24,000 bases of DNA, taken from positions 346,770-370,769 of the forward strand of contig CAWDMD010000007.1 of the NCBI GenBank assembly GCA_963803385.1, given 5' to 3'. The position numbers were made by a program, and so were the translations under genes. Of this stretch, positions 13,222-17,101 are shown one piece after another. How positions within the stretch are numbered: position 1 is the stretch's first letter; each line of letters starts with the position of its first letter. The notes beneath the pieces were generated by a model. The model was not told the origin of the DNA. It ran no database searches and worked only from the letters and a program-made list of their open reading frames with translations. This DNA comes from an uncultured Alphaproteobacteria bacterium (GTDB lineage Bacteria > Pseudomonadota > Alphaproteobacteria > Rhizobiales > Methyloligellaceae).

Positions 13222-13830
13222 TCACACCCGCCTCCGTCGGGCGCGATCGGCGGACGCCGCCTGGCGCTTTACCAACAGCAGCGCCAGTCCACTACCGAGA
13301 ATCATCACCACAAGCACCTTCCAGCCAATTCGCAGCAGCGGCGGCCAAGCGGTGCCGACCGCAAACGGAAACCGTGCGACTTGATCGGCGCCCCCCTCCT
13401 TTGCCGTCACCAGCCCCACATATCGGCCGGCCTCCGCGAAGTCGTGCTCGAAGTGAATGGTGCCGGTCGAATAGGACGCCGGCGGCAGGCTGAATTCGAC
13501 GGGCTGCTCGTCATCGGCCTTCCACCCGTCGACGACGTGCAGAATTTTCACTTCGACCGGAAGGTTGCGCATGCCCGGGTCGACATAGTCCAAGGCGACC
13601 ACCGTCTTCCCGGTCTTCGGGATGTCCTCGCAAAACTCCTGCGTGTCGGTCTCTTGAGGCTGATATCCAGTGAAGTGGATGATGTGCGTCCCGACGCGCA
13701 AGACGCACTTGTCCTGCTCGATGCTCAGCCCGCCATGCGCCGATGCCTGCGGGGAAAACCACCCCGAGGCAATCAGCGCATAAGCGGCGAGGCCGATGAC
13801 GGCGACGAACCTAATGGCTTCCTCCCTCAC
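13222..13830 (-). CDS. pmoD: PmoD/AmoD-like periplasmic protein with C-terminal membrane anchor
   Basis: The GTG start overlaps the pmoB stop (GTGA, 13827-13830). The signal peptide is IRFVAVIGLAAYALIASGWFSPQASA|HGG. A ~150-aa beta-rich domain with two Cys follows, then a C-terminal TM helix (IGWKVLVVMILGSGLALLLV) and a basic tail. Topology and position directly after subunit B match PmoD, but no motif-level match could be verified. Confidence 0.55.
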   Translation of the reverse strand: MREEAIRFVAVIGLAAYALIASGWFSPQASAHGGLSIEQDKCVLRVGTHIIHFTGYQPQETDTQEFCEDIPKTGKTVVALDYVDPGMRNLPVEVKILHVVDGWKADDEQPVEFSLPPASYSTGTIHFEHDFAEAGRYVGLVTAKEGGADQVARFPFAVGTAWPPLLRIGWKVLVVMILGSGLALLLVKRQAASADRARRRRV

Positions 13831-15101
13831 GACGTCCCGAGAAAGTTCGGAATGATTGGGCCCGAAATCTCGGCAATGCGACGCACGCCTTCCGGCGTGT
13901 AGAAGAAGAGAAGAGCTCCGAACCGATTGTCCGGATCGTTGAGCAGGCTGGTGAGACGCTCGACCTCCCACGCAGCGTCGGTAGCCTCGATGTCGATCTC
14001 TCTGGTCTCACCTGGCTGTATCGGCCGGTCGTCCTTCACGATCAGTCCGTGGTTGACCAAATCCGCCGGGTAGCCCTCGTCGACGTTGCTCACCGCGGTT
14101 TCCGACTTCGCGTTGACGAAGCGAACGTTGGCGCTGGTGAACTCGCCGATCTCAAGCACGTCCGGGGTCTCGTTCTTGACTTGCAAGGTCATCTTCATCG
14201 AGCGGCCCGGCACGTCATAGGTCGCCCGCAACACCTTCACCGAGACCTGGCTATCCGGGAGCGGCAGCGGGGGGGTTTGCATCTTGCCCGCTTGAAGGGG
14301 AACGCTGCGTGGGTATTCGGTGTCGGCCCAACTCACCCCAGCGACGACGATGGTGACGGTGCCGACGAGAATGCCCGCCGCGACGACCATGTCCGCGCGC
14401 GTGATCAGGCGGCCGGCGTGGCCCGCCGCCACCTCGCGGAAGCGCGGGATAAGCATCGGACGGCGCATCCACCACAGCAGCCAGAACAGGCCGATAGCGG
14501 CCCAAAGTCCCTGCCAAATGACGACGGTGCGAACGCCCCAGGTGGACAGGTCAGGGATGGTGCGGCCATCGAGGGTCTTTACCGGATAAACGAAATCCGC
14601 GGCAGCGCCTGTGACATCGACCCATTTGCCCGGCCCGACGATCGGGCCGGCCTGATGAACCAGGACGGTCGGATGAATGTGCCACCGCCCGGGTAGGCGC
14701 GCCTGGAGCACGATCTTGAAACTATAGTCGCGGCCCTTCTGCAAACCTGTAGAATTTTGCGCCGCAACCTCGTTGATGTACGACTTCTTCTTCACCATCA
14801 CCGAGCCGGGACCGCCGGTCGACAGGAACGCAAGTGTCGGATCCGCAAGATTCTGCGGCCAGTCGCCGAATACCCTGAACTTTCCGGTGACGACGAGATC
14901 GTCGTTCACCTTCATCTCATCCGTCGACCATTTGACGTCGTACCATTCGAGGGTCCGCATCCGCAGGAACGGCTCCTGGTTGCGTTCGCCATGAGCGAAG
15001 GCGGAGACGGTGCCAACAACAGAGACTGCGCAGACGAGGATGAAGAGATTGGCCCAAAGCAGAAGACGCCGTGCCAGGGCCGACCGAATGACGAGGAGCA
15101 T
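13827..15101 (-). CDS. pmoB: copper membrane monooxygenase subunit B (PmoB/AmoB family)
   Basis: GGGAGGG Shine-Dalgarno lies 7 nt before ATG 15101; an upstream ATG at 15131 is also open. The signal is cleaved at AFA|HGERNQEPFLRMRT, giving an N-terminal His ligand. The HxH motif is GRWHIHP. Two central TM helices and a C-terminal cupredoxin-like domain follow. Confidence 0.92.
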   Translation of the reverse strand: MLLVIRSALARRLLLWANLFILVCAVSVVGTVSAFAHGERNQEPFLRMRTLEWYDVKWSTDEMKVNDDLVVTGKFRVFGDWPQNLADPTLAFLSTGGPGSVMVKKKSYINEVAAQNSTGLQKGRDYSFKIVLQARLPGRWHIHPTVLVHQAGPIVGPGKWVDVTGAAADFVYPVKTLDGRTIPDLSTWGVRTVVIWQGLWAAIGLFWLLWWMRRPMLIPRFREVAAGHAGRLITRADMVVAAGILVGTVTIVVAGVSWADTEYPRSVPLQAGKMQTPPLPLPDSQVSVKVLRATYDVPGRSMKMTLQVKNETPDVLEIGEFTSANVRFVNAKSETAVSNVDEGYPADLVNHGLIVKDDRPIQPGETREIDIEATDAAWEVERLTSLLNDPDNRFGALLFFYTPEGVRRIAEISGPIIPNFLGTS

Positions 15102-15167
15102 AACCGTTCCCTCCCGAGGATTGTGGTGCATGCGAGTTGCTTACGCCTTGTTCGCCTATGTGCCGGG

Positions 15168-16001
15168 TTAGTCGGTCTCGTTCGCCTTAGGCTTCACACC
15201 CAGATAGGTTGCGATCGGGCTTTCAACCCAGTTGGTCTTGGCGAAGAACAAGCCGATGTACCACCACACCAGATACATCATCATGCAGACGAAGGCTGAG
15301 AAGAAGGCGGAGATCCACGCGGAATGCCCGCCAAAGGTTCTCAGCGTTCCCCGCTCGATGAAGCGGAGGTATTCGGGGGTGGAGGAACGGGTGAAGACAT
15401 AGCCGACCATGTCCGCGGTCGACTGCACCTGGCCCATATGCTCGACGGGGATGTGATACGCCGCGATCATCGGGTAGTTGCCGGGATAGAACAGTAGCCC
15501 GAAGCCCCAAGCCCCAATGATGGCGGTCGCGAGAAAATTGCGGCTCAGCAACAGAACCGAGTCCATGAACAGCGCGCCGGGCAGAAGGAGCGTCGGGAAA
15601 ATCAGGCTGTAGGGCAGCCCCGCCCACATATGGAAGCCGAGGATGCGGTCAACCCACTGGCCGAACATGAGCGCCAGGATGCAAAGCGTGGCGCCGATCG
15701 GCAGGCGGAACTTTTCCCAAAGATAGGCTTGAGCCGCGGCCGGGAACATGATGGCCACGATGGGGGTCAGGGTGGCCCAGAACTGCCGGTCCTTCCAATC
15801 GACCCAGAAGTCCCAGTCACCGGCCAGCAGCATGAAGTGCAGGTGAAACGTGCCGGCGATCGTGAAGAACGCGATCACCGCGATCACCAAATCAAATGCC
15901 CTGGATGCCCGTGCTGCAGCAACTTTCGGAGGCACTTGCGTGTCTCTGGCTGCGGCGCCGCTTGTTCCACGGGTCTCCCGATATTCCATCGTGGTGGTCA
16001 T
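15168..16001 (-). CDS. pmoA: copper membrane monooxygenase subunit A (PmoA/AmoA family), 277 aa
   Basis: Diagnostic stretches include [65 protein letters not shown] and WWYIG. A GAGGGGAG Shine-Dalgarno-like run precedes ATG 16001. It is longer than the usual ~250 aa because of an N-terminal extension and a C-terminal polar tail. Confidence 0.92.
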   Translation of the reverse strand: [277 protein letters not shown]

Positions 16002-16140
16002 TTCGCTCCCCTCAATCTTGTCGTTATGCGGACCGGCTCATGGTTGAGCTCGTTCCATTTGGTGTTTGGGAAATGGGGCGCCGGCCTCGTCGATCCGGGA
16101 GGTCACAGCTCAGCCGACGCCCCTTCCTTTTGGTGGGCGC

Positions 16141-16926
16141 CTAATGCGCGACACCATCCAGAGCGTGCTCGCCCCAAATCTCGTTGATCAGCTCGTTGAG
16201 GCGAAGGCCGATCTGAAGGGCGAGGCCGAACAGCGCCAGCCCGGTCCAACCGAGCGCGACGAAGCCCCAGTGGAGAGGCGCGGTAAACCACTCCTCCATG
16301 AACCAGAAGGCATGGCCCCATTCATTCAGGCCAACGTTCGGAAGGATGAAGAACGGTCCGAACACTGCCAGCATGAAGGGAATGGAGACGCGCCTTGCGA
16401 ATTTCGGCAGACGCGTCGTGGCGTACATCAGGGCCGCCGATCCGCAAATGATGTAGATCGGGAAGCTGAGATAGAAGATGGCGATGTGGCTCGGCGTGAA
16501 GCTCGTATCGCGGAGCACGGTCTGATGCCACGAGCCGTCCTGCTCGGCGAAATAGCTCGCGCCCCAATAGACGGCGAACACATAGACGAGCAGCAATCCG
16601 AGAAGCTTGAAGTACCGGACGATCTCAACTTGAGGGGGCAGGTCTTCCAGGTCCCTGTCACGGGTGAACCACAGGTAGGAAAGCCAGCCGACGCCGATCA
16701 GCGGCAGCAGCACAAGCTGAGTCCAAAGCAATCTCATCCAGTAAATTTGAAATTCCGGCAGCGTGGAATTGAGGCCGTATTTCCATCCCGCGATGCCTTG
16801 ATAGACGCGAACTGCGGAGTACAGCACGAGCAGGAAGCCGCAGCCGATCGCGCCGATCTGTGCCCACGTTTTATTCATCGACGCCTGCGCGATACGCGCC
16901 GGGCGTTCATTCGCATAAGCAGTCAT
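16141..16926 (-). CDS. pmoC: copper membrane monooxygenase subunit C (PmoC/AmoC family), 261 aa
   Basis: AGGAGG Shine-Dalgarno lies 8 nt before ATG 16926; the ORF track's upstream extension to 17013 has no such signal. Metal-site motifs are EQDGSWHQ...FTPSH and [21 protein letters not shown]. Confidence 0.92.
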   Translation of the reverse strand: [261 protein letters not shown]

Positions 16927-17072
16927 ATGGTTTTCCTCCTTAGAATTGCCGACCGGAGACCCTGCCGGCCAACCGAACGTTCCCAAGGGGTGACCCCCTG
17001 GTCTCCTCCTCAAATCAATGGCCAGTCCGCCCTATTCGTCCCATTCTTCCCAGCGCGCACGAACCAAAGATA

Positions 17073-17101
17073 ATTGTACGAATTTACTCGTTATTGGTCA
17101 A
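17073..17101 (-). promoter_or_regulatory. predicted sigma70 promoter of the CuMMO operon
   Basis: On the minus strand: TTGACC (17101-17096), a 17-nt spacer, then TACAAT (17078-17073). It sits in a locally AT-rich stretch. The predicted 5' UTR to the pmoC ATG is about 140 nt. Confidence 0.55.

Follow-up and report, generated by a model that had tools for sequence, protein, structure and literature searches.

Which substrate does a copper membrane monooxygenase (CuMMO) serve when its genes stand beside genes for the biosynthesis of coenzyme M (CoM)? This question is raised by a 24,000-nucleotide stretch of contig CAWDMD010000007.1 (positions 346,770 to 370,769) from an uncultured alphaproteobacterium of the Methyloligellaceae, which as a whole we call the window. 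Its minus strand carries a pmoCABD operon, and a preliminary description made from the letters alone had concluded that the substrate of the encoded enzyme cannot be read from the sequence. In our analysis the context does reveal the likely substrate class; at the right-hand edge of the window, the PALP gene is xcbE and the lyase gene is xcbD. With a probability of roughly 0.6, pmoCABD most likely encodes a CuMMO for short-chain alkenes (ethylene and/or propylene) that would feed a CoM-dependent epoxide pathway. To our knowledge, alkene-oxidizing CuMMOs are known from two marine Haliea isolates only and are barely characterized, and EmoA of Haliea sp. ETY-M is the sole CuMMO tied to growth on ethylene. 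The pairing of a CuMMO with an epoxyalkane:CoM transferase (EaCoMT) is already known from Haliea; new here are the bacterial class, the habitat and the cluster, which is of the type found in Xanthobacter autotrophicus Py2. In the literature we found no description of a CuMMO in Methyloceanibacter or the Methyloligellaceae, or of one inside an xec/xcb cluster.

The pmoCABD Operon and Its Copper Sites

All four genes of the preliminary description (261, 277, 424 and about 202 aa) were found as open reading frames (ORFs), co-directional on the minus strand and spanning 13222-16926 (Table 1). The C-A-B triad of subunits is complete, with matches to Pfam PF04896, PF02461 and PF04744 at E = 1e-94 to 8e-143, and the matching NCBIfam CuMMO models recognize the same three genes. 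The gene lengths agree with those of genes called on related contigs, where pmoC likewise has 261 aa, and letter-for-letter PmoA, PmoB and PmoC proteins are on record on an NCBI/ENA contig; PmoA is also matched exactly on a 2-kb Logan contig. PmoD-like genes stand 3' of pmoB in many related loci. Judged by its reading frames, pmoCABD is a real and intact CuMMO operon.

The preliminary description had also stated that every copper-ligating residue of pMMO (particulate methane monooxygenase) structures is present, which alignment to solved pMMO chains bears out. In PmoB the CuB ligands are kept, namely the mature N-terminal histidine (HGERNQ, following the AFA of the signal peptide) and both histidines of WHIH, which correspond to His33, His137 and His139 in the numbering of Methylococcus capsulatus Bath. 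PmoC retains the CuC ligands D/H/H in EQDGSWHQ...PSH (Asp156, His160 and His173 in Bath numbering) and the CuD ligands N/H/H in NEWGH...PLHW (Asn227, His231 and His245). Where M. capsulatus Bath has its own particular bis-His site (H48, H72), the window protein has E and R. With its three-subunit architecture and its CuB, CuC and CuD ligands, the enzyme resembles both Bath pMMO (PDB 1YEW, 3RGB, 7EV9) and the solved ammonia monooxygenases (AMO; PDB 9PXF, 9CL6, 9LEG), and the complete C-A-B-D operon looks functional, as had been proposed.

No Pfam or NCBIfam model matched the pmoD product. It does match the solved PmoD of Methylocystis sp. Rockwell (PDB 6CPD, E=2e-22) and has a signal peptide, a cupredoxin-like periplasmic domain, both invariant cysteines and a C-terminal hydrophobic stretch (transmembrane helix). 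The motif Cx7MxHxnC is necessary for CuA formation by PmoD (Fisher et al., PMC6189053). The window protein reads C-VLRVGTH-I-I-H; Met49 of the motif is replaced by Ile, and we therefore regard it as a member of the PmoD family outside the CuA-forming class.

Position in the CuMMO Family

Despite the shared architecture, the window enzyme is roughly equidistant from the solved pMMO and AMO and falls outside both clades. Subunit A is 51% identical to Bath PmoA (234 trimmed columns), and its structure-search scores are near-equal, with 289 bits for M. capsulatus pMMO, 265-277 bits for bacterial AMO and 258-263 bits for Methylocystis/Methylosinus pMMO. Among 5.8 billion protein clusters, PmoA found matches of 95, 82 and 81% and then of at most 69%, and PmoB matches of 93 and 77% and then of at most 59%. 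In the GTDB comparison set, which holds one genome per GTDB species, only two close loci exist. One is L002, in the metagenome-assembled genome (MAG) MFD02416.bin.1.3 ("uncultured Alphaproteobacteria"), with 98% PmoA identity and 92% DNA identity over window positions 5206-24000. The other is L001 ("uncultured Methyloceanibacter sp."), with 95% PmoA and 90% DNA identity. PmoC is 97% identical to that of L001/L002, and no other GTDB locus exceeds 59% (C), 65% (A) or 54% (B). As anticipated, the enzyme lies outside every characterized PmoCAB1, PmoCAB2, Pxm and AmoCAB clade, none of which any subunit approaches with more than 85% identity.

A neighbor-joining tree of 108 PmoA-like sequences (234 trimmed columns, 200 bootstraps) gave the enzyme a place (Haliea Emo being represented by subunit A only). 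The window, L002 and L001 group with 100% bootstrap support, as do these three together with the metagenomic sequences P0002, P0003 and P0012. At the next level stands a 15-member clade that includes EmoA of Haliea sp. ETY-M, with a bootstrap value of 91%, and of 82-90% under p-, Poisson- and gamma-distances. Outside this clade are the pMMO clade (Bath, Methylogaea, Crenothrix and a Beijerinckiaceae MAG; 100%), PxmA, Cycloclasticus and ET-HIRO. The window PmoA is thus excluded from the pMMO clade and clusters with EmoA. The earlier view of an intermediate or deep-branching CuMMO stands insofar as the enzyme is outside the characterized clades; it is not unplaced, because its PmoA groups with Haliea EmoA.

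Both Haliea isolates (ETY-M, ETY-NAG) carry pmo-like genes. Ethylene alone among the C1-C4 gases supports their growth, and they also degrade ethane, propylene and propane (PMC4036023, PMC6440738). The Haliea EaCoMT gene, which belongs to the Py2 group as does the one paired with the CuMMO here, is reportedly co-transcribed with the emo genes (PMC4036023, PMC6440738). The window host differs from these marine Gammaproteobacteria in being a terrestrial, Methyloceanibacter-like alphaproteobacterium. Cultured Methyloceanibacter strains are without pMMO, and the genus's one methanotroph uses soluble methane monooxygenase (PMC7660913).

The mixed PmoA-like and AmoA-like signatures of the preliminary description are there, and they turn out to be the signature of the Emo clade. 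A 20-letter motif and RTFGG, both taken for AmoA-like, recur nearly letter for letter in Haliea EmoA, which also shares the long C-terminal tail, and ET-HIRO PmoA2 has close variants (a 19-letter motif, RTFGG). The N-terminal extension of subunit A is likewise present; it measures about 15 residues relative to Bath PmoA, not about 20, and is common to the whole clade.

These motifs bear on whether the operon encodes a bacterial AMO, the function that automatic annotation would assign. NCBIfam equivalogs AmoA_BACT, AmoB_BACT and AmoC_BACT match with 338, 542 and 336 bits, above their cutoffs of 290, 336 and 319. Yet the solved AMO subunits A and B score below those of M. capsulatus pMMO (277 vs 289 and 368 vs 393 bits), and the solved AMO subunit C, with 250 bits, scores below every solved pMMO subunit C (252-272 bits). 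Since the solved AMO subunits score lower, the NCBIfam Amo models appear not to discriminate here between AMO and other family members. Moreover, the motifs taken for AmoA-like are those found in Haliea EmoA, the host lineage is methylotrophic, and neither hao nor genes for cytochrome c554/cM552 (cycAB) occur in the 24-kb window or in the approximately 30 kb of flanks seen in relatives. On the scores, the Haliea-shared motifs and this gene content we rejected AMO, which we regard as very improbable. The NCBIfam naming of all three subunits as "bacterial ammonia monooxygenase" shows how pmoA/amoA surveys and automatic annotation mislabel the clade.

A Py2-Type Epoxide and Coenzyme M Cluster Next to pmoCABD

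The strongest indication of substrate comes from the genes upstream of pmoC (Table 1). XcbA-E use phosphoenolpyruvate and sulfite to build CoM (Wu et al. 2022, PMC9457059). The window XcbE is 70% identical to that of Py2, the window XcbD is 65-71% identical in two pieces, and the XcbD orthologue of L002 scores 665 bits against a cutoff of 600. Exact-match look-ups of the XcbE and acyl-CoA synthetase ORFs of the window gave no hit, probably owing to differently called start codons. Synteny of XcbC/D, XcbE, synthetase, aldehyde dehydrogenase, reductase, pmoCAB(D) and the MEDS regulator extends over the window, L001/L082, L002 and the more distant ENA contig L083. Since xcbD is cut by the window end, we infer the EaCoMT linkage of its own genome from this synteny.

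L082, a contig of a Methyloceanibacter MAG with 90% nucleotide identity to the window, shows how the cluster continues. Seventeen co-directional genes run from the EaCoMT gene to pmoB, and one extra 183-aa ORF without a Pfam match lies on the opposite strand. The EaCoMT gene (Meth_synt_2, 376 aa) heads the cluster, 17 kb upstream of pmoC, and is followed by a small XecB-like ORF, a 2-KPCC-like disulfide oxidoreductase, two short-chain dehydrogenases/reductases (SDRs) and a two-subunit CoA-transferase. Then come XcbA, ComA/XcbB, XcbC, XcbD, XcbE, the synthetase, the aldehyde dehydrogenase (called at 479 aa), the CoA-disulfide-reductase-like (CoADR-like) gene, pmoC, pmoA and pmoB.

Compared with plasmid pXAUT01 of Py2, which carries xamoABCDEF, xecABCDE and xcbABCDE, the gene order is the same: xecA-B-C-D-E and xcbA-B-C-D-E are collinear at 55-89% protein identity. 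In L082 the EaCoMT zinc ligands H218-x-C220...C341 are conserved, and the XecC homologue, whose apparent split is caused only by a run of N, agrees fully with Py2 2-KPCC in its redox disulfide CPHNAC and in its C-terminal DELFLNPTHFIQ, the place of the Phe/His signature. When we used the EaCoMT as query against 72,556 plasmids, only three matches appeared, in Py2, Nocardioides JS614 and M. chubuense NBB4, all known alkene oxidizers. What differs is the oxygenase next to the cluster: Py2 has a soluble, six-component di-iron alkene monooxygenase there, the window lineage a membrane copper enzyme. The cluster also holds a CoA-transferase, an ADP-forming synthetase, a SauS-like dehydrogenase and a CoADR-like gene that are extra relative to Py2 and typical of ethene clusters.

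Table 1. Features of the pmoCABD locus, with window positions, and identities of the cluster proteins to their Py2 counterparts.
Feature	Position	Strand	Evidence
pmoC-like subunit C	16141..16926	minus	261 aa; ATG at 16926 behind AGGAGG ribosome-binding site; Pfam AmoC 1e-94
pmoA-like subunit A	15168..16001	minus	277 aa; Pfam AMO 5e-99
pmoB-like subunit B	13827..15101	minus	424 aa; signal peptide ending in AFA, then HGERNQ; Pfam Monooxygenase_B 8e-143
pmoD homologue	13222..13830	minus	202 aa; GTG start overlapping pmoB stop; matches PDB 6CPD
Sigma-70-type promoter TTGACC-17-TACAAT of pmoCABD	17073..17101	minus	10/12 consensus positions; conserved in four genomes
AT-rich block 5' of -35, candidate regulator site	17112..17150	minus	Conservation across genomes
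HTH-MEDS regulator	12007..12820	minus	Downstream of pmoD; Pfam HTH_17 and MEDS in two overlapping frames
CoADR-like flavoprotein	17305..18663	minus	Pfam Pyr_redox_2; NCBIfam 356 bits, below 579 cutoff
CoA-acylating aldehyde dehydrogenase, SauS-like	18673..20112	minus	NCBIfam acylating sulfoacetaldehyde dehydrogenase 497 bits, below 600 cutoff
ADP-forming acyl-CoA synthetase	20133..22232	minus	699 aa; Pfam CoA_binding, Succ_CoA_lig, ATP-grasp_5
xcbE, CoM biosynthesis PLP (pyridoxal phosphate) enzyme	22229..23284	minus	NCBIfam CoM_syn_XcbE 500 bits, above 450 cutoff
xcbD 3' part (3-sulfopropionylcysteine synthase, adenylosuccinate-lyase-like)	23242..24000	minus	Runs off window
copC-copD copper-uptake genes	7300..8697	plus	Frameshifted; Pfam CopC, CopD partial matches only
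XecA (EaCoMT)			76% identity to Py2
XecB			58% identity to Py2
XecC (2-ketopropyl-CoM carboxylase, 2-KPCC)			67-72% identity to Py2
XecD (XecD/XecE, R-/S-hydroxypropyl-CoM dehydrogenases)			55% identity to Py2
XecE			72% identity to Py2
XcbA			80-89% identity to Py2; NCBIfam 485 bits, cutoff 150 (L082/L002)
XcbB (ComA)			73% identity to Py2; NCBIfam 315 bits, cutoff 280 (L082/L002)
XcbC			67% identity to Py2; NCBIfam 662 bits, cutoff 575 (L082/L002)
XcbD			73% identity to Py2 (L082); above NCBIfam cutoff
XcbE			70% identity to Py2; above NCBIfam cutoff

The window gene set (xcbE, xcbD, synthetase, SauS-like, CoADR-like and HTH-MEDS genes) matches the content of the etn, xec and Methylohalobius crimeensis clusters. 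A CoADR gene belongs to the mycobacterial etn clusters (PMC8727900), a sulfoacetaldehyde dehydrogenase to the M. crimeensis epoxyethane cluster (PMC11507031), and ADP-forming acyl-CoA synthetases of this type occur in both. The etnEABCD clusters of Mycolicibacterium and Nocardioides, which serve ethene and vinyl chloride metabolism, share EaCoMT, CoM biosynthesis, CoADR, SDR, MEDS, CoA-transferase, synthetase and aldehyde dehydrogenase with the cluster described here; they differ in an EaCoMT that is only 44-48% identical, in a di-iron oxygenase (EtnABCD) and in their actinobacterial hosts.

In M. crimeensis 10Ki, a CuMMO and a CoM-dependent epoxide pathway also coexist in one organism. The accessory genes are the same, an HTH-MEDS regulator is present, and a detoxifying role has been proposed for the pathway. 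By analogy, pmoCABD could encode a divergent pMMO of a methylotroph turned methanotroph, whose CoM cluster detoxifies epoxyethane arising from ethylene co-oxidation. Such clusters occur in approximately 10% of methanotroph genomes and the M. crimeensis cluster is ethylene-induced (PMC11507031); the host genus here is methylotrophic, so methanol would be usable, and every pMMO copper ligand is kept. However, the M. crimeensis pMMO is canonical for methane, and the locus tags of its two pmoCAB operons are distant from those of the epoxyethane cluster, whereas the CuMMO studied here is no member of the pMMO clade, with only 51% identity to Bath PmoA and a place outside that clade, which itself has 100% bootstrap support, and is physically linked to its cluster. 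That cluster, in addition, holds a full propylene-type epoxide carboxylase system, including 2-KPCC and a pair of stereospecific dehydrogenases, which exceeds what epoxyethane detoxification needs. We consider a methane-oxidizing enzyme improbable.

If the alkene assignment holds, the CuMMO would take the place of the soluble di-iron XamoABCDEF or EtnABCD in a Py2-like pathway. It would epoxidize the alkene using O2 and membrane-derived reductant, and XecA would open the epoxide with CoM. In a C3 route the dehydrogenases and the carboxylase would then give acetoacetate; in a C2 route acetyl-CoA would be the product of the acylating aldehyde dehydrogenase together with the CoADR-like enzyme, CoA-transferase and ADP-forming synthetase. 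The presence of two stereospecific dehydrogenases and 2-KPCC argues for propylene, with acetoacetate as product. Associated with ethylene metabolism is the set made up of CoA-transferase, synthetase, SauS-like dehydrogenase and CoADR-like gene.

Conservation of the Linkage and Contexts within the Emo Clade

Linkage to CoM genes is not a general feature of CuMMO loci, since among the 80 GTDB loci searched only L001 and L002, of the window's own lineage, were positive; in 0 of the other 78 did Xcb or EaCoMT genes lie within 10 kb of the CuMMO. Several points weigh against an alkene monooxygenase in this lineage. CuMMOs are promiscuous, so the substrate cannot be proven from sequence. Subunit A is only moderately identical to Haliea EmoA (56-59%; 59% over 234 trimmed columns), and the tree that unites them is a neighbor-joining tree of subunit A alone, built without AmoA and actinobacterial sequences. 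The EaCoMT and Xec genes were seen in relatives only, beyond the window end, and the frameshifts in xcbD, the regulator and copCD described below would, if real, impair the pathway in this genome. As M. crimeensis illustrates, detoxification can be the task of a CoM cluster in an organism with a true pMMO (PMC11507031). Finally, contexts within the Emo clade are mixed. The CuMMO of contig L084 (P0004) is accompanied by FIST and histidine-kinase genes, with no CoM genes in 15 kb. That of L085 (P0026), the sister of Haliea EmoA, stands not at the end of an approximately 20-kb Py2-like xec and xcb cluster, as the CuMMO does here, but beside genes for a zinc-dependent alcohol dehydrogenase (Zn-ADH), DUF779 and an aldehyde dehydrogenase, which have an alkane- or alcohol-type look. 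Because the contexts are mixed, the Emo clade looks like a group for C2/C3 hydrocarbons in which the window lineage is the CoM-wired member.

In L085 these three genes (5239-9223) lie on the opposite strand, 3' of the CuMMO, a layout pointing to a metabolism of ethane or ethanol instead of epoxides. Two further members of the clade, from unrelated metagenomes, have regulators of the window type beside the CuMMO: L091 (P0008) carries an OmpW gene and an HTH-MEDS gene, the latter at 5955-6794, and L089 (P0010) a divergent MEDS gene (2828-3381). No CoM genes are visible on these short contigs.

The L085 context is one of the reasons to consider that the enzyme oxidizes short-chain alkanes (ethane, propane), the CoM pathway only mopping up or salvaging epoxides from the co-oxidation of alkenes. 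The Haliea strains also degrade ethane and propane; subunit A is 58-59% identical to that of ET-HIRO-type ethane oxidizers; and the part of the neighborhood within the window has aldehyde dehydrogenases and quinoprotein-relay genes. Three features speak for an alkene enzyme instead, which makes an alkane monooxygenase unlikely in our view. The operon is embedded in the epoxide/CoM cluster in four genomes, not beside alcohol dehydrogenases, and its regulator is of the HTH-MEDS type of alkene clusters. In addition, a better alkane candidate lies 25 kb away, in a second CuMMO beside an aldehyde dehydrogenase and an AMP-forming acetyl-CoA synthetase.

This second operon (pmoCAB and a PmoD-like gene) was seen at L013:9048-12691 on contig CAVTBH010000003.1, corresponding to approximately 9-10 kb left of window position 1 and approximately 25 kb from the first operon. 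Its PmoA is approximately 60% identical to that of the window and clusters with CuMMOs of Rhodocyclales and HGW-Betaproteobacteria-11, not with the Emo clade. Its flanks hold the aldehyde dehydrogenase gene whose end is window 2-763, an AMP-forming acetyl-CoA synthetase, FIST, OmpW and a CopD-cytochrome c-AhpC fusion. The second CuMMO is also present in the window's own genome (P0021, same sample) and is possibly an alkane-type partner of the first.

More tentatively, and with somewhat less than an even chance, we propose that a soil Methyloceanibacter lineage grows on ethylene or propylene by means of a CuMMO rather than a di-iron enzyme. It would do so from an island of two CuMMOs approximately 25 kb apart, the alkene-type one wired to a complete CoM epoxide-carboxylase pathway and the alkane-type one beside the aldehyde dehydrogenase and acetyl-CoA synthetase. 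If true, the lineage would provide the first example of an alkene-type CuMMO beyond marine Haliea, and Methyloceanibacter would gain its first CuMMO function. The terrestrial alphaproteobacterial case offers a testable hypothesis on consumers of ethylene and propylene in soil, complete with downstream pathway, candidate regulator and promoter. It would also point to modular exchange between families of gas monooxygenases, copper membrane and soluble di-iron, on a conserved CoM pathway.

Three observations concern related loci. HGW-Betaproteobacteria-11 (L011) has a CuMMO with 53% PmoA identity to that of the window, and this MAG gives the best database matches to most of the M. crimeensis epoxyethane/CoM genes (PMC11507031); CoM/epoxide genes do not lie within 10 kb of its CuMMO. 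XcbC-like lyases of approximately 55% identity occur in Methylocystis parvus, Methylocapsa aurea and Methylocella MAGs, in agreement with the figure of approximately 10% of methanotrophs. In L013, a gene for a 326-aa secreted protein without a Pfam match (12773-13753), absent from the window, lies right beside the second CuMMO; it adjoins operons of this second type in 14 further loci (40-55% identical).

Candidate Promoter and HTH-MEDS Regulator

The promoter proposed for pmoCABD was found as described, with its -35 element TTGACC at 17101-17096, a 17-nt spacer and the -10 element TACAAT at 17078-17073, approximately 140 nt upstream of the pmoC ATG. A consensus promoter scan of the region returned two sites where 1.5 are expected by chance, so the pattern is not significant by itself. 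The promoter call gains its support from conservation of the hexamers in three other genomes: in an alignment of the pmoC upstream regions of four genomes, the -35 element is invariant, and the -10 element reads TACAAT in three and TATAGT in the distant L083.

Immediately 5' of the -35 element, the window, L002 and L082 share the AT-rich block at 17112-17150 letter for letter, and L083 retains part of it. It consists of the hexamers ATGAAT, ATGTAT, ATCTAT and ATGAGT at an exact 10-bp spacing, with the palindrome ATGTA-tt-TACAT, and we infer that it is a candidate activator site. A conserved 21-mer 5' of the pmoC promoter is unique in L082 (0 matches expected by chance) and is not repeated in the 119 nt examined upstream of the EaCoMT gene of that contig. 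Rfam scans at gathering thresholds and tRNA scans of the window yielded no hits, so neither a riboswitch in the approximately 140-nt pmoC leader nor a tRNA-flanked island boundary was found. A terminator scan remained at chance level (5 found, 4.2 expected).

The regulator downstream of pmoD, one 266-aa ORF in L002, is 44-48% identical to Xaut_4864 of Py2, which is located between xamo and xecA. HTH-MEDS or MEDS regulators are also part of the mycobacterial etn cluster (PMC8727900) and the M. crimeensis cluster (PMC11507031). Across 91 loci (1.3 Mb), we detected homologues only in the Py2 cluster and beside CuMMOs of the Emo clade (L001, L002, L083, L089, L091), and none beside the other CuMMO loci compared. 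We suggest that the HTH-MEDS protein turns on the pmoC promoter in response to alkene or epoxide, probably via the 10-bp-periodic AT-rich block. Promoter and regulator are possible parts for alkene or epoxide biosensors.

Frameshifts in the Window

Relative to L002, three features of the window are interrupted. A 1-base insertion near 12567 splits the regulator, two 1-base insertions near 23780 and 23924 make the xcbD copy read across three frames, so that no intact XcbD is encoded (a sequencing error is possible), and copC-copD show 14 gap columns, 13 of them in copD. At 85% nucleotide identity, copD is the lowest coding stretch compared; in L002, copC and copD are intact (115 and 346 aa). 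The frameshifts are either sequencing or assembly errors or real, early gene decay.

If they were real, the system could be a decaying, non-functional remnant in this genome, which would not be exclusive of the functions discussed above. The single-base indels that break xcbD, the HTH-MEDS regulator and copC/copD fit such decay. Against it, pmoC, pmoA, pmoB, pmoD, xcbE, synthetase, aldehyde dehydrogenase and CoADR-like reductase are free of uncompensated indels at 90-96% nucleotide identity to L002, identical PmoA, PmoB and PmoC are on record from independent assemblies, and the frameshifts could be consensus errors of long reads. A remnant therefore seems to us a rather improbable explanation.

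Other Genes in the Window

The neighborhood of aldehyde dehydrogenases, an acyl-CoA synthetase, quinoprotein-relay genes and a MEDS regulator was recovered in full and does hint at short-chain hydrocarbon metabolism, as previously suggested. The relay genes (8729-10571) encode a "quinoprotein relay system zinc metallohydrolase 2" (TIGR04559, 404 bits) followed by SoxY-like and SoxZ-like proteins. Such a set normally accompanies pyrroloquinoline quinone (PQQ) alcohol dehydrogenases; no PQQ dehydrogenase gene is present in the 24-kb window. Further to the left (1330-4900), the genes serA (phosphoglycerate dehydrogenase) and serC (NCBIfam 665 bits), joined by a HAD hydrolase gene that is possibly serB, make up a complete phosphoserine route next to the hydrocarbon island. 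A link from this route to the CoM genes by way of cysteine, a serine-derived co-substrate of XcbD, is speculation. Two genes encode secreted proteins without a Pfam or NCBIfam match, one at 10765-11292 (175 aa, 96% in L002) and the other at 6298-7287 (329 aa, 92% in L002), directly upstream of copC.

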